From Acholeplasmataceae bacterium (GTDB taxonomy: Bacteria; Bacillota_I; Bacilli_A; Acholeplasmatales; Acholeplasmataceae): a stretch of DNA of 64,000 bases. Below the pieces are notes generated by a model. It saw only the letters and a program-made list of their open reading frames with translations. It did no database searches and was not told where the DNA came from. The stretch spans positions 352,001-416,000 of the forward strand of contig OY775910.1 in the NCBI GenBank assembly GCA_963675245.1, given 5' to 3'. Position numbers and translations under genes: made by a program. This document shows positions 35,372 to 45,183 of the stretch, piece after piece. Each line of letters opens with the position of its first letter. Position 1 is the first letter of the stretch.

Positions 35372-37333
35372 TCATATCTTAAGAGATTCATTCACGTGCT
35401 TTCTTAAATATTGATAGCGTTCATTCGTGTAAAAATCTGGTCTTTCAAATAGATCAACCACATTTTTATGGGCTTCATGGAGAATGTTGTAGTCATTTGA
35501 TAACTCTAAAAAATTAAATTTAAGATATCCGGATTGTTCGACACCAATAAAATCTCCTGGACCTCTCTGAGCAAGATCAAATTCAGATAATTTAAATCCA
35601 TCATTGGTTTTAGTCATCAATTCTAAGCGTTCTAAATCCTGTTTTTCACTCACTAGATAACACGTACTTGGTAAGTCACCTCGACCGATTCTTCCACGTA
35701 ATTGGTGAAGTTGTGATAACCCAAAGTGTTCTGCTGATAAGATGATCATTTGGGTGGCTGTAGGAATATCAATGCCTACTTCTACCATCGTTGTTGATAA
35801 TAGCACACTACCTGGGGTTTCTCTGAATTTTTCCATGACATCACCTTGTTCATCTTTTGATAGTTGACCATGTAAAACAAATAATGGATGATGCATGTAT
35901 TTTAATTTTTCTTTCGTCACAATAATATTATCTTTCACTTGTTCACTTGAAATAGCAGGCACAACAATAAATGCGTGTTCACCTCTAGTTAATGCTTTTT
36001 CAATATCCATAAATACTTTTTGTTCGTTTTTTTGATCAACTAATTTGGTTATCACCGGAGTCCTTTTAGCTGGTTTTTCACGAATCACCGATACATTGGA
36101 TTCACCAAAAGAAACCATTGCTAGCGTTCTAGGAATAGGCGTCGCAGTTAAATACAACACATCTTTTGCATGACCTTTATCAATTAATGTTTGTCTTGCA
36201 TCAACACCAAATTTATGTTGCTCATCGATAATGACAAACCCTAGTTTTTTAAATTGAACATCTGTTTCAATCAGTGCTTGTGTGCCAATAACGATATCAA
36301 ATTCTTGATTTAATATCGCTTTTTTAACTTGTTCCTTGTTTTTTGTCTTTTGGGTTAATAATGCGATATTCAAGTCTTTGAGCAACGACGAAAATAATGT
36401 ATAGTGTTGATTTGCCAGTAAGGTTGTTGGTGCCATTAATGCTACTTGTTCACCTGCTGTAGCTACCGCGTATGCCGCGATTAACGAGACAATTGTTTTG
36501 CCTGAACCTACATCACCTTGAACAAGTCTTATATGAGAGTACTCACTTTTAAAATCCTTAAATATATCGTTTGTTGCCTGTTTCTGATCACTGGTTAATT
36601 CATATGGTAATTGCCGAATAAGTGTTTTCACTTTTTCGATATCATAGACTTTTGGTAGACGCTTGCTACTAGCTAATTGATTCGCAACCAATTTAAGTTG
36701 TAAGAAGAATGCTTCTTCATATTTAAAACGTCGTTCTGCGTGTTGAATATCTTCAAATGATTTAGGTATATGAAGCATTTGATATGCTTTAAGGCGTTGA
36801 GGTAAATGGTATGTTTTTAGAAACTCATGAGGAATAGTCTCAAATATTTGAACCTGTTTTGTATCAAATATTTCTTTCATCAAATTTTGAATTTGTCTGT
36901 CATACACCCCTTCTATTTTATAAATAGGTTTAATCGGTGAATGACCTGTCACTTTAGAAATGTAACTCGCGACAATCTTTTTATGATATAGATGATACGT
37001 TCCTTTAACTAAAACAAGTGATTGTTCAGTTAATTGTTTCATGAGATAAGCACGATTAAAAATAACCACATCAATCACTTGATCAACCACTTTTATTTGA
37101 CATGTAATCACATGAACTTTACCATAAGGATTCTCTTTTAAAGGAGAGACAACTGTCCCTTGAACAGTGATTTTTTCTAGATGCTTAGCTTGTGATAATG
37201 ATCGAACAGTGAAGTCTTCATAACTCCTTGGATAATGCAAAACAAGATCGTATGTCGACCATATGTTTTGATTTCGAAAATGTTTTAATAATGAAGGCCC
37301 AATGCCTTTTATGTGCTCTAGTTTGACTTCCAT
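35372..37333 (-). CDS. recG: ATP-dependent DNA helicase RecG
   Basis: QGDVGSGKT, DEQHKFG, TATPIPRTL, QLHQLRGRIGRG, RGPGDFIG. Confidence 0.96.
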   Translation of the reverse strand: MEVKLEHIKGIGPSLLKHFRNQNIWSTYDLVLHYPRSYEDFTVRSLSQAKHLEKITVQGTVVSPLKENPYGKVHVITCQIKVVDQVIDVVIFNRAYLMKQLTEQSLVLVKGTYHLYHKKIVASYISKVTGHSPIKPIYKIEGVYDRQIQNLMKEIFDTKQVQIFETIPHEFLKTYHLPQRLKAYQMLHIPKSFEDIQHAERRFKYEEAFFLQLKLVANQLASSKRLPKVYDIEKVKTLIRQLPYELTSDQKQATNDIFKDFKSEYSHIRLVQGDVGSGKTIVSLIAAYAVATAGEQVALMAPTTLLANQHYTLFSSLLKDLNIALLTQKTKNKEQVKKAILNQEFDIVIGTQALIETDVQFKKLGFVIIDEQHKFGVDARQTLIDKGHAKDVLYLTATPIPRTLAMVSFGESNVSVIREKPAKRTPVITKLVDQKNEQKVFMDIEKALTRGEHAFIVVPAISSEQVKDNIIVTKEKLKYMHHPLFVLHGQLSKDEQGDVMEKFRETPGSVLLSTTMVEVGIDIPTATQMIILSAEHFGLSQLHQLRGRIGRGDLPSTCYLVSEKQDLERLELMTKTNDGFKLSEFDLAQRGPGDFIGVEQSGYLKFNFLELSNDYNILHEAHKNVVDLFERPDFYTNERYQYLRKHVNESLKI

Positions 37334-38310
37334 GCTTTAGATTGTAACATCATATCAGCTAAAACAATCGCGATGACGTTTTCTAAAACGACACCAATGC
37401 GTCTGATAATCGCGACATCGTGTCTTCCCCCGATTTCAAGATCACTGACTTCATTTTTACTAAAATCAAAGGTATGTTGTTTCTTTTGAATGGATGATGT
37501 TGGTTTGACGAGTACTTTGATAATGAGATCATTACCGTTTGAAATACCACCACTTACACCACCACTATGATTAGTTTTAGTGATACCACGATCATTGATA
37601 AACGCATCATTCCATGCTGATCCGAGCTTATCTGCCGCTTCAAACCCTGCCCCAAATGAAACACCTCGTACAGCAGGAACACTCATCACCATTTTAGCTA
37701 TTTCGGCATCAAGTTTATGAAAGAAAGGTTCTCCTAAACCAATAGGTACATCTTTGACAACAACCTTGACGATACCTCCTACTGAATCGCCTGCTTTAGC
37801 GACTTCTAGAAGATATTCATCTAAATGTGATAAATCTGTTAGCGTACCAACACGTACCATTTCACTAGAAAATTGGAAAGGTAGTATCATTTTTGCTAGA
37901 CTTCCAGCAGCAACTAGTGGTGCTGTAAGTCGACCTGAAAAACGACCACCACCACGATAATCATGAAAACCATTATATTTAACATTCGCAACAAAATCAG
38001 CATGTCCCGGTCTTGGCTGATGAACTAGTTTTTCATAATCTTTTGATTTCATATTATGATTTTCAATCATTAAATGAATCGGTGAACCGGTTGCTTTTCC
38101 ATTGAAAACACCAGAAGTGATTCTAAATTCATCTGCTTCTTTTCTTGGAGTGGTTCCAACAGCACCTGGTTTTCTTCTATCTAAATCTTGTTTGATAAGA
38201 TCTAAATCAATTTCAGTGCCTGGTATCATACCATCCACAACAACACCAATCGCATCTTGATGAGATTCACCATATAATGTGACTTTAAATAAGTTCCCAT
38301 AACTATTCAT
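37318..38310 (-). CDS. aroC: Chorismate synthase
   Basis: GESH, RPGHAD, RGGGRFSGR, KPTSSI, GRHD. Confidence 0.96.
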   Translation of the reverse strand: MNSYGNLFKVTLYGESHQDAIGVVVDGMIPGTEIDLDLIKQDLDRRKPGAVGTTPRKEADEFRITSGVFNGKATGSPIHLMIENHNMKSKDYEKLVHQPRPGHADFVANVKYNGFHDYRGGGRFSGRLTAPLVAAGSLAKMILPFQFSSEMVRVGTLTDLSHLDEYLLEVAKAGDSVGGIVKVVVKDVPIGLGEPFFHKLDAEIAKMVMSVPAVRGVSFGAGFEAADKLGSAWNDAFINDRGITKTNHSGGVSGGISNGNDLIIKVLVKPTSSIQKKQHTFDFSKNEVSDLEIGGRHDVAIIRRIGVVLENVIAIVLADMMLQSKAWKSN

Positions 38311-39085
38311 GGATGATAGCCTCCTTTATTTCTTTCATTAATTTTGGTTTAATCTTGATTTGTTTTTCTAACCAATCCATTTCACTATATAAGGCCTGAA
38401 TAATAAGCATGTCTAGTCCACTTATACCCCGTTTAGCACTTTTAATGAATGTCGTTTCCATTGGATTATAGATCAAATCAATCACGGTTTTGTCTTTAAT
38501 CAATTCCCGGTTGATTGGACTGTCATCGACGTTTGGATAGGTCCCCACTGGCGTAGCATTAACAACGATATCAACCTCATCTGGATTAAAAGATTGATAG
38601 CCAATCACTCGTTTAAAAGTCTCTGATAAGTGTGGCTTTCTAGAAACAACCGTCACGATCGCACCCAAGTCCATTAATACGGTATAAACCGCTTTGGCTG
38701 CGCCACCTGTTCCCAATATATAAACGTGTTTCTTTTTAACTTTTATTTTATTATACTTAAGTAACCCTTTAAATCCTTCATAGTCTGTGTTGTCGCCACA
38801 TACACGACCATTTTGATAATAAAGGGTGTTTACTGCGCCAATTCGTTTCGCGTTATCCGTTAGTAGTTCAACATATTTCATGACATCTTCTTTATAAGGA
38901 ATCGTCACATTAAACCCATGATACTCGCCATTTTTTAAAGCCGTAATCATACCCGATAATTCATCAGGCTTAATATCTAATATCTCATACTTAAAAGGCA
39001 CATTTAAAAATGGTGCCATATATTGATGAATGAGTGGTGATTTTGAATAACCGATATGTTGACCGATTAGTCCAAATGTCATCAT
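38303..39085 (-). CDS. aroE: Shikimate dehydrogenase
   Basis: SKSPLIH, NVTIPYK, GAVNT, NTDY, GTGGAA. Confidence 0.95.
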   Translation of the reverse strand: MMTFGLIGQHIGYSKSPLIHQYMAPFLNVPFKYEILDIKPDELSGMITALKNGEYHGFNVTIPYKEDVMKYVELLTDNAKRIGAVNTLYYQNGRVCGDNTDYEGFKGLLKYNKIKVKKKHVYILGTGGAAKAVYTVLMDLGAIVTVVSRKPHLSETFKRVIGYQSFNPDEVDIVVNATPVGTYPNVDDSPINRELIKDKTVIDLIYNPMETTFIKSAKRGISGLDMLIIQALYSEMDWLEKQIKIKPKLMKEIKEAIIHE

Positions 39086-39336
39086 TTTTGAATCTCCTTG
39101 GATAACCGCATGATTTCTTTAATGAACGCTTTGTAGTATGGCCAAAAAGATTCATCGTTTAACCGTTTACGTAGTCTATCATAGACTGCCTTTTCTCTTG
39201 ATTCATCAAAAACGGGTAAACCCGCTTCTTTTTTTGCATCACCAATCTGTTTTGAAACAGCCATACGTGATTTAAAAAGTTCTAGTAGTTCTTCATCAAT
39301 TTGATTTATTTGTATTCTTAATTCATCAATAGTCAT
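39082..39336 (-). CDS. Chorismate mutase (AroQ class, monofunctional)
   Basis: IDELRIQINQIDEELLELFKSR...IGDAK...VFDESRE; GGAG RBS before MTIDEL. Confidence 0.9.
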   Translation of the reverse strand: MTIDELRIQINQIDEELLELFKSRMAVSKQIGDAKKEAGLPVFDESREKAVYDRLRKRLNDESFWPYYKAFIKEIMRLSKEIQK

Positions 39337-40582
39337 CGACTTCTCCTCCGAGTGACATATAATCTTTAAAAAAGGTAGGATAAGATTTATTAATACATGA
39401 TGCGCCTTCAATCGTAATTGGACCGTCAGCCAAAATGGTTGCTACTGCGATTGACATCGCGATACGGTGATCATTAAAAGCACTTAATGTTTGATGACCT
39501 TTAAATGTTGATTGACCTGCAATTGTGACTGTATCACCATCAACAATGACATCAACCCCTAGTTTAGTCAATATTTGAATCATTGCACTTAAACGATCAC
39601 TTTCTTTTATGCGTAATCTTTCACAATTAAGAAAAACAGATTGTCCTTTAGATCTCGCAGCTAATACCATTAAAATAGGTCCCAAATCAGGGATATCTTT
39701 TAAATCAATTGTCATTCCAAAAGTGTCAGATGGATGAATAATATAACCTTGTTCTGTCGATTCAATTTTTCCACCCATTTCTTTTATCACATCAACGATT
39801 GCCTTATCACCTTGAAGACTTTTGTGTGAAAGATGGTTTAAATGAATCGGTTTTTTACCTAAAAGACCAGCAACCATCCAAAAAGCGGCTTGTGAATAAT
39901 CACCTTCTACAACTGCTTGTTGCGGTTTATAATGTTGACTTCCTTTAATGTAATAATAATGATCCACACTTAAAATATGAATACCAAATTTTTTTAAAAC
40001 TGAAAGCGTTAAATCCACATATCCCTTTGATTCCAAAGGTGTGGTTAATTCAATCACTGAATCTTCTCTTCTTAAAGGAAGCGCAAATAGTAAACCAGAA
40101 ATAAACTGACTACTCACATTACCACGAATTGGATAATGTCCCCCTTTAAGTTTACCTTTAAGTGTTAAAGGTAGTTCATCTTGACTTTCTTTTTCAAATG
40201 TTACATGCTTCGATTTAAAAAGCTCTTCATATTGGTCCAAAGGTCTCTTAACTAATCGACCCTCACCGTGAATGGTAATCCGTTCATTATCAAGTAAATA
40301 AATAGGAATCATGAAGCGTAATGTTGAACCAGATTCTTTGATGTTTACACGTGTTTTTATAATCTTATTTTTTCCACCATGAACGTGATCACCATCAAAT
40401 GTTACACCAAACGCTTCGAGTGCTTCTTTAGTCGCATCGATATCATTCGCATGTAAGACATTAGAAATATGACTGATACCATCTGCCAAACCGGCAGCAA
40501 TCAAATATCTGTGCGATAAAGATTTAGATGAAACAACATTTAATTGACCACTGAGTGGTTTTGGTGTAATTGTGACGTTCAT
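39326..40582 (-). CDS. aroA: EPSP synthase
   Basis: SKSLSHR, ESGSTLRF, SSQFISGLL, LRIKESDRL, DHRIAM. Confidence 0.96.
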   Translation of the reverse strand: MNVTITPKPLSGQLNVVSSKSLSHRYLIAAGLADGISHISNVLHANDIDATKEALEAFGVTFDGDHVHGGKNKIIKTRVNIKESGSTLRFMIPIYLLDNERITIHGEGRLVKRPLDQYEELFKSKHVTFEKESQDELPLTLKGKLKGGHYPIRGNVSSQFISGLLFALPLRREDSVIELTTPLESKGYVDLTLSVLKKFGIHILSVDHYYYIKGSQHYKPQQAVVEGDYSQAAFWMVAGLLGKKPIHLNHLSHKSLQGDKAIVDVIKEMGGKIESTEQGYIIHPSDTFGMTIDLKDIPDLGPILMVLAARSKGQSVFLNCERLRIKESDRLSAMIQILTKLGVDVIVDGDTVTIAGQSTFKGHQTLSAFNDHRIAMSIAVATILADGPITIEGASCINKSYPTFFKDYMSLGGEVDDY

Positions 40583-41583
40583 GATAAATCCTCGATACCC
40601 ACTTTTTGAATCACAGGTTTACCAATCGCTTCTAATAAAATGAAATGAAAGCCATCTGCTGTATTCTTTTTATCTGTGGAAAGTCCCTCTATAAAGCGAT
40701 CTTTAGTCAGTAGTGGTTCATGAACTAACTGCCATGATAGAAGTGTTCCTTTGACTTCATCATAAAGTTCATCAGGTGTAATATTAAGTTGATTACCAAT
40801 TTCTATCGCCATCAACATACCATAGCTAATTGCTTCTCCATGTTTAAACATATTATAGTTAAAATACTTTTCAATGGCATGTCCGAATGTGTGACCAAAG
40901 TTTAAATACATGCGTTCTTTTTTATCGAAAGGATCGATATCAACAACGCTTTTTTTCACGTGAATGGCATTCACTAATTGGGCTTCTGTGAGCACAATTG
41001 GACGTCTAACTTGAGCATATAAATGCGCATTCCCAATGAGGCCAGCTTTAATCACTTCAGCCATACCATTTCGATATTCTTCTTTGCTTAATGTTGATAA
41101 AAAAGCCATATCAATCAATACCATTTTCGGTTGATAAAATACACCTAATAAATTCTTACCTTCCGGTAAATCAATGCCTGTTTTACCACCAATAGATGAA
41201 TCCACCATGGCGAGTAAAGTAGTTGGAATTTGAATAAATGGTACACCTCTATATAGGGTTGCAGCAACAAACCCAGAAAGATCTCCCACAACTCCACCAC
41301 CGAGTGCTAGAATCATGTGTTCTCTTTTTAGTCCTTTATCAATAAGATCTGAAATCACATTTAAATACGTACCGTAAACTTTTGATGTTTCTCCAGGTGG
41401 AATCACAGTGAAAGAAAGATCAAAATCAGATAATGCTTTTCTTACTTTTTCTTCATAAAGTGAAAAGACTGTTTCATCGGTGATGATAAACAGTTTACGG
41501 TATGTATATAACGATTTGATATGTGTCTGAAAATGATTTAACTTTTCAAACACAATCTCATAATTATTCATTGGAATCTTCAT
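40579..41583 (-). CDS. aroB: 3-dehydroquinate synthase
   Basis: GGGVVGD, PTTLLAMVDSSIGGK, LNFGHTFGHAIE, HGEA. Confidence 0.96.
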   Translation of the reverse strand: MKIPMNNYEIVFEKLNHFQTHIKSLYTYRKLFIITDETVFSLYEEKVRKALSDFDLSFTVIPPGETSKVYGTYLNVISDLIDKGLKREHMILALGGGVVGDLSGFVAATLYRGVPFIQIPTTLLAMVDSSIGGKTGIDLPEGKNLLGVFYQPKMVLIDMAFLSTLSKEEYRNGMAEVIKAGLIGNAHLYAQVRRPIVLTEAQLVNAIHVKKSVVDIDPFDKKERMYLNFGHTFGHAIEKYFNYNMFKHGEAISYGMLMAIEIGNQLNITPDELYDEVKGTLLSWQLVHEPLLTKDRFIEGLSTDKKNTADGFHFILLEAIGKPVIQKVGIEDLS

Positions 41584-42400
41584 CGAACGATTTCCTCTTT
41601 TCGGTTGCTTTTTCCATATATGATATCAAATTTTCTTTCTCATCTTTTTTAATCATATCTTTGACTAAATCAAGTTGATATTCGAAGTTTTTAATTTGTT
41701 CTAATAATGCTTCTTTATTTTCGCTAAACAATTCAGTCCACATATTCGCGTTGATTTTAGCAATTCTTGTTAAATCTCTATAAGAATCACCAGTCGCTTC
41801 TTTTGTTTGACTAAATGAATCTGAGTTCACTAAACTTATGGCTAATACATGTGTAAGCTGACTAGTAAAAGCGATGAGTTGATCATGTGTTTTCGCATCA
41901 ACGACCATCACACGACCAAATTTTAATTCAGATGCAATCTCTCTTAATACCGTTTCATCCTGATTAGTACTTCTTTCGCTTTTAACGATGATGAAATTCG
42001 CACCTATAAAAATATCTTTATCTTTGACATCATAACCACTCGTCTCCTTACCCGCCATAGGATGATGTGATGTATAACTTATACCCTCAGGTAAAATCTT
42101 TTCGATTTCTGGTATCATCCACACTTTTGTACCACTTACATCAGTGACGAATTGTCCAGGTTTAAATAATGATTGATGCTCTTTGATAAATGCGATGTTG
42201 TGTTTAGGATATAACCCTAAAATAACAACATCTGCCTCACTCAATTTAGAGAGTGAATTATCAGCAGACACAATCCCTTCTTTAATGGCTTGTTCGATCC
42301 TACTTGTGGTTCTATTCCAAGCATATATCGTATGATGTTGTGATAGACCTTCAGCGTATGACGCACCAATAAGTCCTAAGCCTACGATAAAAATTTTCAT
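41564..42400 (-). CDS. tyrA: Prephenate/arogenate dehydrogenase
   Basis: GLGLIGAS, HPMAGKE, HDQLIAFTSQLTH, SYRDLTRIA. Confidence 0.93.
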   Translation of the reverse strand: MKIFIVGLGLIGASYAEGLSQHHTIYAWNRTTSRIEQAIKEGIVSADNSLSKLSEADVVILGLYPKHNIAFIKEHQSLFKPGQFVTDVSGTKVWMIPEIEKILPEGISYTSHHPMAGKETSGYDVKDKDIFIGANFIIVKSERSTNQDETVLREIASELKFGRVMVVDAKTHDQLIAFTSQLTHVLAISLVNSDSFSQTKEATGDSYRDLTRIAKINANMWTELFSENKEALLEQIKNFEYQLDLVKDMIKKDEKENLISYMEKATEKRKSFDEDSNE

Positions 42401-43416
42401 TGAATATCCTTACCTGTCACTTTCGCGATATTGTGTAATTGTTTAACCATATGATCATACTTTTGAGGTTTAAGCGATTGTGCACCATCAGAGAATGCAT
42501 GTTCTGGATCATGATGAACTTCAACGATTAAGCCATGTGCACCGACCGCTAAACTTGCTAACGATAACTCTTCAATCATTTCCCAGCGACCTGCAGCATG
42601 AGATGGATCAATAATGACTGGTAAATGAGATAATTGTTTAACCGCTAAAACAGCACTGATATCCAATGTGTTTCTAGTGTATTTTTCAAATGTACGAATA
42701 CCTCTTTCACAAAGAATGACATTGTCATTGCCTGAAGCCATGATATATTCAGCTGACATAAGCCATTCTTCAATGGTGGATGCGAGACCACGCTTTAATA
42801 AAATGGGTTTGTCTGTCTTCCCGAGTGTTTTTAATAATTCGAAGTTTTGCATGTTTCTCGCACCAATTTGAATGATATCTACGTATGCATTAAATTCATC
42901 TAATAAATTAGGATCCATTATTTCACTAACGACAAGCATACCAAATTCATCTGCAACTTTACGTAATAATTTTAACCCTTCCACACCCATTCCTTGGAAT
43001 GAATATGGTGACGTTCTTGGTTTATATGCACCACCACGTAAGATTCTTGTGCCTGTTTTAAAAACTTCTTTCGCGATTGTTCTGAGTTGATCTTCTGATT
43101 CCACAGAACATGGACCTGCCATTAATGTAAAATGATCTCCACCCACTTTAATACCCATTGGTAATTCAAGAATCGTATCTTCTGGATGAAAAGATCTGCT
43201 CGCTTTTTTAAATGGTGTGGATACACGGGTGACATCACCAACACCTTCAAACGCATAAAGATCAAATGGTTCGATTTGTGTCGTATCACCGATGATACCA
43301 AAAATCGTGACCTGATCACTGCTTACATCTTTTATTTCTAATCCTTTTTCTTGCAAAAATTCAACAAGTTTTAAGTATTGATTTCTAGTTGATTCTTTTT
43401 TCATTTTAATAATCAT
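42397..43416 (-). CDS. aroF: DAHP synthase, type I-beta, with N-terminal regulatory domain
   Basis: AGPCSVES, KPRTSPYSFQG, IGARNMQN, DPSH. Confidence 0.95.
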   Translation of the reverse strand: MIIKMKKESTRNQYLKLVEFLQEKGLEIKDVSSDQVTIFGIIGDTTQIEPFDLYAFEGVGDVTRVSTPFKKASRSFHPEDTILELPMGIKVGGDHFTLMAGPCSVESEDQLRTIAKEVFKTGTRILRGGAYKPRTSPYSFQGMGVEGLKLLRKVADEFGMLVVSEIMDPNLLDEFNAYVDIIQIGARNMQNFELLKTLGKTDKPILLKRGLASTIEEWLMSAEYIMASGNDNVILCERGIRTFEKYTRNTLDISAVLAVKQLSHLPVIIDPSHAAGRWEMIEELSLASLAVGAHGLIVEVHHDPEHAFSDGAQSLKPQKYDHMVKQLHNIAKVTGKDIQ

Positions 43417-43440
43417 ATTGTTGCGCTCCTTGGCTTCTTA

Positions 43441-43473
43441 AATATAAAAATCCCCGAGGACAACCTCAAGGAT
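43441..43473 (-). terminator. Leader (attenuator) terminator upstream of aroF
   Basis: RNA AUCCUUGAGG-UUGU-CCUCGGGGAU followed by UUUUAUAUU, ending about 10 nt before the aroF RBS. Confidence 0.8.
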
Positions 43474-43538
43474 ATTTGTTCATCGCTTTGGCTGTTCCCT
43501 TCATTTCATTACGAAAAGGAATGCCTCACATTCCTTAT

Positions 43539-43586
43539 TTATCTATAGTAATAATATGCGTAAGAAACAGTCTTATAATTTAACAT
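43539..43586 (-). CDS. Tyr-rich leader peptide MLNYKTVSYAYYYYR (putative attenuator peptide)
   Basis: AAAGGTGA RBS 7 nt before ATG; 6 of 15 codons are Tyr, four in tandem; lies between the promoter and leader terminator of the aroF-tyrA operon. Confidence 0.85.
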   Translation of the reverse strand: MLNYKTVSYAYYYYR

Positions 43587-43614
43587 GGAAAAATCACCTT
43601 TCCTGTTTGATATA

Positions 43615-43643
43615 ATCGTATCACAATCCCAATAAAAACACAA
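43615..43643 (-). promoter_or_regulatory. Putative sigmaA promoter of the aro operon leader
   Basis: TTGTGT-17 nt-TACGAT with an extended TGn before the -10. Confidence 0.55.
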
Positions 43644-43665
43644 TACAAAAAAAGTTGCAATTAGG

Positions 43666-43717
43666 TATTGTGTTTTACACAGTAATGTGATAATCTAGTA
43701 GTGTGCAATGCACAATA
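43666..43717 (+). promoter_or_regulatory. Two palindromic boxes TAnTGTG-N5-CACAnTA, probable PadR operators
   Basis: TATTGTG-TTTTA-CACAGTA (43666-43684) and TAGTGTG-CAATG-CACAATA (43699-43717) flank a GATAAT -10-like element just before the padR RBS. Confidence 0.6.
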
Positions 43718-43729
43718 AGGAGGCTTTAT

Positions 43730-44047
43730 ATGAATACACAGTTTAAAAAAGGGATTGTAGAAATGTGTGTATTGAGTCTCATGGAACATAAGGATTTATA
43801 TGGATTTGAAGTAATTGAAGCGCTAGCTACAGCGATTGAAGTCAATGAAAACACCGTATATCCGATTCTAAGAAGGCTTACTGCACAAGGATTATTTTCA
43901 ACTTATGTTGAACAAACATCACTAGGTGCACCTAGAAAATATTATCATTTAACTGATCTCGGTCAAGAACGTTTAGGAGAGTACAGATATGAATGGCAAT
44001 CATTTCTAAAAGGTGTAAACAGAATATTGGGAGGTAATGAAGTATGA
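43730..44047 (+). CDS. PadR family transcriptional regulator
   Basis: QFKKGIVEMCVL, YGFE, TVYPILRRL, PRKYYHLT; AAGGAGG RBS. Confidence 0.93.
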   Translation: MNTQFKKGIVEMCVLSLMEHKDLYGFEVIEALATAIEVNENTVYPILRRLTAQGLFSTYVEQTSLGAPRKYYHLTDLGQERLGEYRYEWQSFLKGVNRILGGNEV

Positions 44048-45183
44048 AACAAGATTTTCTTGATCAATTAGAATCAAGCTTAAAAAAACGTCAAGTCGTT
44101 GATTCTGATATTGAAGATGTATTAAATGATTATAATGGCATGTATGATGATGCAATTGATCGTGGTTTATCTGATGAAGAAACACTGAATTTATTGGGTA
44201 ATCCTGATGATGTTGTCAAAGAATTATTAGATACACTCCGCGTTAGAGATTTTAGAGAAGTTAGAAGAAAGAATAATAAACTTGTCGCGTTAGCACCTTT
44301 TCTATCTATAATCGCGTTTATGTTATTAGGTTTTATTGGTGGTATGTGGCATCCTGGTTGGTTAGTATTCTTATTTATTCCAATCGCGGGAGTATTAGGT
44401 AACGTCAATAAAAAAGAAAAGTTTGTTGCTATTTCCCCATTTATATCACTGATTGTCTTTATCTTTTTAGGGGTAGCTTATCAAGCGTGGCATCCAGGTT
44501 GGTTGATGTTTATGCTAGTGCCTATAGCTGGCGTGTTATTTGGTGCTAAGAAAAAAGATCGTTTGTTAGGTGTATTACCATTTCTTGCACTAATTGCTTG
44601 TATATTATTTGGAACATATATGGTTAATGCGTGGGCATGGTCTTGGTTGTTCTTTATGTTAATTCCATTTTTCGGTGCTCTTTATCGTGGCACAGCCTTA
44701 GATCGTTTTTTACTCGCACCATCCATTTTGATCGCAGTTGGATTTTATTTATTCATGTATTTACAATATGATATGCTAACATATGGATTAATCGGATTTG
44801 CATTACCACTAATCATTGCGGTAATCTTAGGTAGAGTAAATATCGTCGTTAAGTTTAATAAATCATTTAAGAATGTTGCAAACTTAATGATATTAATAGT
44901 TTGTCTTGCTGCTTTTCTCATCGTTGGATTTACCGTTCCAAATGCTTGGGGTTGGGCATGGATGATCTTATTACTCATTCCGATTACGTCTGTTCTTATT
45001 CAAAAGCGTCGCGTGAGACTAACCGCTATTATGCCATTTGTTTCAGTCATCATTTTCTTTTCACTCGGCTATTTCTTAGATCTTTGGTATATTTCATGGT
45101 TAGCATTCTTACTCATTCCAATGATGGGTATTTTAGAAAATGACCCTCCTGTTAAAATCAAACACAAAAAAAATAAAGATTAA
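44044..45183 (+). CDS. DUF1700/HAAS-type membrane protein with repeated TM hairpins
   Basis: N-terminal FL..LE..L...DVLNDY...GLSDEE...LGNP motif; six W..W....IP hydrophobic repeats. Confidence 0.8.
   Translation: MKQDFLDQLESSLKKRQVVDSDIEDVLNDYNGMYDDAIDRGLSDEETLNLLGNPDDVVKELLDTLRVRDFREVRRKNNKLVALAPFLSIIAFMLLGFIGGMWHPGWLVFLFIPIAGVLGNVNKKEKFVAISPFISLIVFIFLGVAYQAWHPGWLMFMLVPIAGVLFGAKKKDRLLGVLPFLALIACILFGTYMVNAWAWSWLFFMLIPFFGALYRGTALDRFLLAPSILIAVGFYLFMYLQYDMLTYGLIGFALPLIIAVILGRVNIVVKFNKSFKNVANLMILIVCLAAFLIVGFTVPNAWGWAWMILLLIPITSVLIQKRRVRLTAIMPFVSVIIFFSLGYFLDLWYISWLAFLLIPMMGILENDPPVKIKHKKNKD

Follow-up and report, generated by a model that had tools for sequence, protein, structure and literature searches.

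A predicted tyrosine-sensing leader-peptide attenuator upstream of the aroF-tyrA operon of an Acholeplasmataceae bacterium and its relatives

Enterobacterial transcription attenuators such as those of trpL-trpEDCBA, pheL-pheA and hisL consist of a mini open reading frame (ORF) with tandem codons for the end product of the operon, followed by RNA segments that pair alternatively as protector (1:2), antiterminator (2:3) and terminator (3:4); a ribosome stalled on the hungry codons frees segment 2. In the Bacillota, the usual tRNA-sensing control of amino-acid genes is the T-box (RF00230), which binds uncharged tRNA directly and requires no translation, and tyrosine genes of this phylum are usually under T-boxes. 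The element described here precedes aroF, the first gene of the aroF-tyrA operon, on the minus strand of a 64,000-nt stretch of the genome of an Acholeplasmataceae bacterium (assembly GCA_963675245.1, contig OY775910.1, positions 352,001-416,000; hereafter the window). It is very probably a transcription attenuator of the leader-peptide type, which works through the ribosome and senses how much charged tRNA-Tyr is available. The original prediction, made from the letters of the window, had proposed a tyrosine-sensing leader-peptide attenuator of the aroF-tyrA operon, and the comparative evidence given below supports this central reading. Logic and parts list are the same as in the enterobacterial attenuators. 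The element differs from these in its apparent tyrosine specificity, in an additional conserved hairpin placed at the protector tip and next to the stop codon, and in a predicted antiterminator that reaches into the loop and the 3' arm of the terminator. With the T-box it would share the reading of tRNA charging and the choice between terminator and antiterminator; it differs in that no T-box match was obtained at 42000-45000 with E-values up to 10. The search of this interval against Rfam 15 at the same limit yielded four chance-level matches only and no leader family, and no sequence relation of the element to any Rfam family was found at E-values up to 10. The genome contains 14 T-box matches, 11 of which are above the Rfam cut-off, and these are located away from the aroF leader.

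The closest described element is the uORFC-13-1 motif, which was reported with 24 representatives from Acholeplasma and environmental DNA only (Brewer et al. 2021, RNA Biol 18:2417, PMC8632094). In that study, Acholeplasma laidlawii PG-8A is numbered as genome 13. The motif is described as being exclusively upstream of aroF and was proposed to be an upstream ORF (uORF) in which the speed of phenylalanine incorporation controls a terminator. The published description, as far as the accessible part of the article goes, lists -35 and -10 boxes, a ribosome binding site, a start codon, a U run, an extra substructure and a terminator directly after it. All of these are present in the window, also directly upstream of aroF, and the element fits point by point as a member of uORFC-13-1, matched by description only. 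The motif is not in Rfam 15. The two accounts differ in several respects. The accessible part of the article names phenylalanine as the sensed residue and makes no mention of tyrosine codons, and it describes neither an antiterminator nor a protector pairing; in it the motif is confined to one genus and environmental DNA, whereas the element is found here in four families of the order. The motif of 2021 and the textbook mechanism were already known, and the element is not a new kind of mechanism. Added here, from sequence comparison, are the probable sensing of tyrosine, the explicit description of a co-varying protector and antiterminator, and a wider spread in the order. Among titled public records, the nearest AroF is that of an Acholeplasmataceae bacterium (87% identity).

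Other described leaders are more distant. The aroR leader of Corynebacterium glutamicum (Neshat et al. 2014, as summarized in the accessible part of a review, PMC11802643) encodes Phe-Tyr-Phe and is reported to respond to phenylalanine, not to tyrosine. It is also an aromatic-codon leader peptide controlling a 3-deoxy-D-arabino-heptulosonate 7-phosphate (DAHP) synthase gene by attenuation; it differs in having Phe-Tyr-Phe where leaders of the window type have tyrosine runs, and it belongs to a different phylum. Histidine leader peptides have been predicted in several lineages of Bacillota, according to the part of PMC9413887 at hand. Leaders of aro genes or for tyrosine were looked for in Naville & Gautheret 2010 and in Seliverstov et al. 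2005 and none were found; the latter list tyrosine under T-boxes. No described example of a tyrosine-specific leader-peptide attenuator was found in the literature searches. In this respect, the original prediction, which knew of no characterised tyrosine-codon attenuator in Mollicutes, holds for the word 'characterised', but the motif itself is in print as a candidate.

All leader coordinates were read directly from the sequence of the minus strand, from 43643 to 43416. The predicted promoter has the -35 box TTGTGT (43643-43638) and, after a spacer of 17 nt, the -10 box TACGAT (43620-43615), which is an extended -10 (TGATACGAT, 43623-43615) because TG stands one base upstream of it. The Shine-Dalgarno (SD) sequence of the leader ORF, AAAGGTGA (43601-43594), lies 7 nt before the ATG. 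The leader ORF extends from the ATG at 43586 to the TAA at 43539 and comprises 15 codons plus TAA (MLNYKTVSYAYYYYR). Six of the 15 codons are tyrosine codons (codons 4, 9 and 11-14), and there is no phenylalanine and no tryptophan codon; the run TAT TAT TAC TAT (43556-43545) is the proposed stalling site. The 5' strand of the protector (segment 1, 43570-43548) is inside the leader ORF and extends into the tyrosine run. Hairpin 1 (43536-43516), with nine pairs and a 3-nt loop, begins 2 nt past the stop codon, and its 3' arm continues into a U stretch. It is followed by the purine-rich switch segment (segment 2, 43513-43481), which includes GAAGGGAA at 43502-43495 and has two predicted partners: 43513-43492 pairs with the leader ORF to give the protector, and 43499-43481 pairs with the terminator region to give the antiterminator, a hairpin of 16 pairs at 43499-43457. 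The intrinsic terminator (43473-43441) has a stem at 43473-43450 with ten pairs, five of them G-C, and a 4-nt loop, and is followed by its U tract. The SD sequence of aroF, AGGAG, is at 43430-43426 and the aroF ATG at 43416. Promoter, ribosome binding site, tyrosine-rich leader ORF, hairpin, purine segment, terminator and aroF ribosome binding site had all been placed by the original prediction, and each was found again at the position given there. The protector helix was absent from its model.

Within 43000-44200, three terminator-like sites were counted, compared to 0.4 +/- 0.6 in shuffled sequences, and the promoter-like hexamers alone are at chance (5 sites vs 5.8 +/- 2.8 in shuffles). Genome-wide (1.63 Mb, 33.9% G+C), 36 of 31,177 ATG mini-ORFs of 8-30 codons have at least three consecutive tyrosine codons; an SD-like motif accompanies four of these 36, which lie at three places, and only one of the four, the aroF leader, has four tyrosines in a row. 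Taken together, the leader has the features of a classical attenuator: an SD-led ORF with tandem tyrosine codons, tyrA in the operon and an intrinsic terminator, and, from computation, an antiterminator that excludes the terminator and a protector that overlaps the regulatory codons.

The identity of the sensed amino acid was assessed from the leader peptides of the relatives. The 44 leaders give 39 distinct peptides of 11-19 residues, counted after Met1. Tyrosine accounts for 172 of the 544 residues (31.6%), phenylalanine for 42 (7.7%) and tryptophan for none. At least three consecutive tyrosines occur in 33 of the 39 peptides, and the last tyrosine is 0-3 codons before the stop. TAT (118) and TAC (54) alternate in the leaders, and conservation is therefore of the amino acid and not of the nucleotides. 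From these sequences the sensed residue is probably tyrosine and not phenylalanine, as it was read in the catalogue entry of 2021. The U run of the motif is read here as the 5' strand of the protector, which would pair with the purine segment and happens to encode phenylalanine in some members.

The tyrosine-rich small ORFs, for which the original prediction had suggested looking in related genomes, are present there. A search of 41 related genomes located AroF in 32 of them, and 24 loci with a full-length match were examined; 19 of these have a tyrosine-rich ATG mini-ORF located 154-190 nt upstream of aroF, and five have none (L016, L019, L022, L023 and L026). The terminator is present in all 19 seed leaders, and the leader ATG and an AAGG are nearly invariant in an alignment of leaders. 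A covariance model (R1) was built from hairpin 1 through the terminator only, with the leader ORF excluded. R1 matches 42 of 151 sampled genomes of the order, with a single match per genome in 41 of the 42; by family, the matching genomes number 28/60 in f1, 2/61 in f2, 2/5 in f3, 9/22 in f4 and 0/2 in f5. The window's own genome has one match, the next best having an E-value of 0.6. Outside the seed genomes R1 has 28 matches, of which 24 have a tyrosine-rich ATG ORF whose stop codon lies -1 to +6 nt from the start of the match, and 25 have an aroF-like ORF downstream. In a class-wide sample, 10 of 151 genomes match, nine of them in the window's own family; the tenth, from another family, is doubtful, with two weak matches (E-values of 1.7e-4 and 7.3e-4), and the class-level R1 search returned no credible match beyond the order. 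In every one of the 44 related leaders, an extended -10 that has TTG at the -35 position precedes the mini-ORF ATG by 23-39 nt, and an SD-like 4-mer is present in 39 of the 44. The 3' arm of hairpin 1 together with the U stretch is nearly invariant across the 44 leaders.

The four new R1 matches that lack a tyrosine-rich ORF are L057, L072, L073 and L076. L057 has two scattered tyrosines only. L072 (G030:C32:16523-16615) is a weak match (E-value 2.3e-4) with no tyrosine run; the aroF downstream of it survives as two short fragments within G030:C32:16639-17201, and the locus looks like a decaying leader before a decaying aroF. L073 and L076 were set aside as probable false positives of R1, having neither a tyrosine ORF nor an aroF-like ORF downstream. 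As a separate observation, the 200 nt upstream of aroF in L016 (G013) contain no tyrosine mini-ORF and no R1 match, in a genus in which eight of nine genomes have the motif. A hairpin unlike that of the motif, and a terminator-like stem that has a U run, are still present before aroF in L016, where the leader may have been replaced.

The full leader of 194 nt folds at -47.8 kcal/mol (z -3.1, 1/200 shuffles as good). In its minimum free energy (MFE) structure, leader ORF positions 43570-43548 pair with 43513-43492, the purine stretch included, in a helix that carries hairpin 1 at its tip. When folded alone, the protector (43570-43492) is the strongest structure (-22.3 kcal/mol, z -4.0, 1/200 shuffles as good), followed by the terminator stem at 43473-43450 (-14.1 kcal/mol, z -4.09, 0/200), the antiterminator at 43499-43457 (-13.7 kcal/mol, z -2.84, 2/200), hairpin 1 at 43536-43516 (-8.9 kcal/mol, z -3.49, 0/200) and the pairing of the hairpin-1 3' arm with GAAGGGAA (-6.5 kcal/mol, z -1.95, 9/200). 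The antiterminator is seen in the fold in which the tyrosine run is masked by a ribosome and the transcript is cut just inside the 3' arm of the terminator. It pairs GGGAACAGCC and the spacer behind it with GGTTGTCCTC and the bases before it, and it occupies the terminator loop together with eight of the ten 5'-arm bases and three 3'-arm bases. The short pairing of GAAGGGAA with AUCCUU, which had been offered as antiterminator, is superseded by this longer hairpin.

Co-variation of the stems, the other feature to be looked for in relatives, was found by three approaches. RNAalifold, applied to the seed leaders, recovers hairpin 1 and the terminator, with two-sided changes at 8 of 16 pairs. Pair counts were made on a model-based alignment in which 44 of 48 rows were kept (40 distinct), the four dropped rows being reverse-strand matches over the palindromic hairpin 1, and were compared with counts obtained after the partner strand had been shifted. 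The terminator is paired in 98% of cells (35-65% when shifted) and has many two-sided, compensatory changes. The antiterminator is paired in 70% of cells (38-56% when shifted), with two-sided changes at five pairs. Hairpin 1 is paired in 87% of cells (46-63% when shifted) and is mostly invariant, with essentially no two-sided changes. Also, partners were swapped between lineages among the 40 distinct leaders in 5000 permutations: the antiterminator has -13.90 kcal/mol with its own partners and -11.06 +/- 0.37 with swapped ones, the protector -17.13 and -12.34 +/- 0.50 kcal/mol, respectively, and for both none of the 5000 permutations was as good. A smaller partner matrix of nine lineage representatives gave the same trend. 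The parts of the leader and their conservation, and co-variation for three of its helices, are thus shown by sequence and comparison. The pairing of the hairpin-1 3' arm with the purine stretch, by which the original prediction had GAAGGGAA sequestered, is conserved (88% of cells paired, 52-81% when shifted) and possible, but weak in energy and free of two-sided changes; at most it may be an auxiliary.

The positions of these parts relative to the translating ribosome are conserved too. With the first codon of the run in the A site, at least half of the ORF strand of the protector is inside the ribosome footprint in 42 of 43 leaders. In 42 of 43, too, hairpin 1 begins -6 to +2 nt from the stop codon, where values of -6 mark the limit of the folded region and not an observed start, and the ORF used for L010 is in the wrong frame. 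The stop codon thus abuts hairpin 1, as the mechanism in the original prediction requires. As a side observation on the leader's own SD sequence, a small hairpin at 43603-43583 (minus strand) can sequester it in the MFE structure by pairing GGAAAG with the U-rich stretch before the ATG, and both sides appear to co-change in the relatives when the alignment is read by eye; this hairpin may tune translation of the leader.

The following mechanism is proposed. Transcription would start from the conserved extended -10 promoter, and a ribosome would translate the 15-codon leader. When Tyr-tRNA is plentiful, the ribosome would reach the stop codon abutting hairpin 1, transiently melt hairpin 1 and depart. 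The 5' part of the protector strand would already be beyond the footprint of a ribosome at the stop, and therefore the purine segment 43513-43492 would be captured by the leader-ORF strand 43570-43548 to form the protector; with the ribosome on the stop codon, the purine segment may in addition be held by the hairpin-1 3' arm, which has then been freed. Once the protector is formed, the terminator at 43473-43450 would form and transcription would end before aroF. When Tyr-tRNA is scarce, the ribosome would stall at the tyrosine run (43556-43545) and cover the 5' strand of the protector, and hairpin 1 would stay closed. The free purine segment would then pair with the 5' arm, the loop and the early 3' arm of the terminator as antiterminator, and RNA polymerase would read on through aroF-tyrA-aroB-aroA-CM-aroE-aroC, CM being a chorismate mutase gene. 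The decision would be kinetic, going to the partner of the purine segment that becomes available first. In analogy to the trp leader, RNA polymerase may pause at hairpin 1 and its U stretch, which would keep ribosome and polymerase in step.

Several observations weigh against this proposal. In equilibrium folds of the complete leader, the terminator of the window has a probability of 0.91-0.97 in all ribosome-mask states, and it likewise stays formed in 15 of the 19 leaders. The ribosome-masked folding suggested in the original prediction therefore gave a divided result: with the tyrosine-stall mask, the terminator probability falls to 0.5 or less in 4 of 19 leaders (L002, L003, L007 and L020), in the direction predicted by the model, and with the stop-codon mask it is at least 0.81 in 19 of 19, but the leader of the window itself is not switched. 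In folds of truncated transcripts the 5' arm of the terminator is largely paired in all three ribosome states, with no separation between them, and at one truncation point the antiterminator is the MFE structure even without a ribosome. Folds alone thus discriminate the ribosome states poorly. Because the terminator stays formed under equilibrium masks, the switch would have to be kinetic rather than one of equilibrium, as in the trp paradigm. Furthermore, the partner-swap permutations disregard differences in base composition between genomes, and the tyrosine content is weak in L010, L011 and L057, which have two or three scattered tyrosines. Two promoter-like sites (43469-43441 and 43441-43412; 9 of 12 matches, which is a chance frequency) lie between the terminator and aroF, and a second transcription start past the terminator is conceivable at these weak sites. 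Finally, the genome has a prephenate dehydratase gene elsewhere, and a sensor of tyrosine only, which would also govern the phenylalanine supply, fits less neatly.

The poor response of the folds bears on an alternative in which the leader is a riboregulator, with hairpin 1 and the purine segment as binding site for a protein, a small ligand or a tRNA, the mini-ORF being incidental or serving to load ribosomes. Ribosome masking alone does not switch the equilibrium folds, the near-invariance of the hairpin-1 3' arm and U stretch in the 44 leaders goes beyond the needs of a plain stem, and the accessible part of Brewer et al. (PMC8632094) mentions an extra base-paired substructure without a known role. 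However, ORF, SD sequence, start codon, tyrosine run and stop position are all conserved while the other codons vary, the Rfam search described above gave chance-level matches only, and strong conservation is also expected if one strand pairs with two or three alternative partners. A riboregulator of this type is considered improbable. Similarly improbable, and perhaps slightly more so, is an attenuator that is coupled to translation as proposed here and whose signal is the general capacity for translation, or else the modification of tRNA-Tyr, which alters the decoding of TAT and TAC. Any slowing at tyrosine codons would act alike on the switch, and both TAT and TAC are used; against it, the operon encodes tyrA and the common pathway, and tyrosine is therefore the simplest signal. 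That the attenuator responds to tyrosine itself is inferred.

The reading of Brewer et al. 2021 (PMC8632094, accessible part), in which the U run encodes phenylalanine and the speed of its incorporation sets the terminator, agrees with the presence of at least one phenylalanine in 26 of the 39 peptides, in some of them within the U-rich stretch, with the synthesis of phenylalanine from the same pathway in this genome, and with the Corynebacterium aroR leader, which precedes aroF and is reported in the review cited above (PMC11802643) to respond to phenylalanine and not to tyrosine. It does not account for the leader of the window, which is one of 13 among the 39 peptides without any phenylalanine. 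Two phenylalanines in a row are found in three of the 39 peptides only, compared to the 33 with runs of tyrosine, and the U-rich stretch is accounted for as the protector 5' strand; sensing of phenylalanine is accordingly given very little weight. That the terminator is constitutive and partial, with a mini-ORF present by chance and nothing regulated, can practically be dismissed, since 42 of the 151 genomes sampled from the order conserve the arrangement as a whole, the alternative helices co-vary, and mini-ORFs with tyrosine runs are rare in the genome (36 of 31,177).

The operon controlled by the putative attenuator is encoded on the minus strand. The gene aroF (42397-43416, with its SD sequence from 43430) encodes a DAHP synthase with an N-terminal ferredoxin-like domain (Pfam DAHP_synth_1, 3.3e-81; DAHP_snth_FXD, 1.1e-12). 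The rest of the operon spans 37318-42400 and comprises, as identified by Pfam, tyrA (41564-42400), aroB (40579-41583), aroA (39326-40582), a type II chorismate mutase gene (within 39082-39411), aroE (38303-39085) and aroC (37318-38310); recG, the gene that follows downstream, does not belong to the aro genes. Counted from its first TTG, the chorismate mutase ORF overlaps the end of aroA by 86 nt; its real start is probably near the aroA stop codon, because the Pfam match begins at residue 31. The agreement between operon and end product that the original prediction had pointed out stands in so far as tyrA is present and the operon contains no prephenate dehydratase gene. The genome does contain one outside the window (G000:C1:42944-43459, L161), about 350 kb from the aro operon, and the operon therefore also feeds phenylalanine. 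On reading of the approximately 130 nt upstream of this gene (pheA), no obvious leader ORF or terminator was seen. The alpha chain of tryptophan synthase was not found in the genome, which is 99.96% complete.

Divergently oriented upstream of the operon, on the plus strand, are a gene for a PadR-family regulator (43730-44047, within the region 43650-44047), the likely start of which is the ATG at 43730 with GGAGG upstream, and a gene for a HAAS-domain protein (44044-45183). Palindromic boxes at approximately 43655-43715, between the PadR gene and the aro promoter, recur before aroF in many of those relatives in which the PadR gene is likewise a neighbour, as read from the sequences, and are probably PadR operators. 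Relatives without a PadR neighbour still keep the leader.

Upstream regions of aroF were also examined in 79 loci (L082-L160) from other named lineages, including Clostridia, some spirochaetes and others. At 36 of the 79 loci, the 300 nt upstream contain an ATG mini-ORF on the sense strand in which a stretch of eight residues holds five or more tyrosines or phenylalanines; the same scan gave 0 on the antisense strand and 0.9 in mononucleotide shuffles. These mini-ORFs are located 140-275 nt upstream of aroF. They are like the leader of the window in position and in the gene family that follows. They differ in that phenylalanine and tyrosine are mixed and the peptides are longer; the comparison was made between peptides. 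None of 20 loci with such mini-ORFs was matched by Rfam at the gathering score, and Tyr/Phe mini-ORFs before aroF in Clostridia and the other lineages were not found in print. They look like a widespread, uncatalogued set of aromatic leader peptides. It is suggested, tentatively and with somewhat less than even confidence, that the tyrosine-specific attenuator is a specialised branch of this large aromatic (Tyr/Phe) leader set before aroF in the Bacillota and beyond, and that its hairpin 1 is a fifth working part. As such, a melted hairpin 1 would signal a ribosome that has finished the leader, its 3' arm helping to hold the purine segment, and an intact one a ribosome stalled a few codons earlier.

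To our knowledge, tyrosine is among the amino acids without a textbook-listed leader-peptide attenuator. A wall-less lineage with small genomes and many T-boxes is predicted here to run its whole shikimate/tyrosine operon by the classical ribosome-stalling design. The 2021 catalogue entry for uORFC-13-1 probably names the wrong amino acid. The occurrence of Tyr/Phe mini-ORFs before aroF in many lineages suggests that the first step of aromatic amino-acid synthesis is commonly under a control that has gone unannotated. The leader described here may be of use for the annotation of the missing small ORF and regulatory RNA, for reading metabolic regulation in metagenome-assembled genomes, and for the design of tyrosine-responsive switches.

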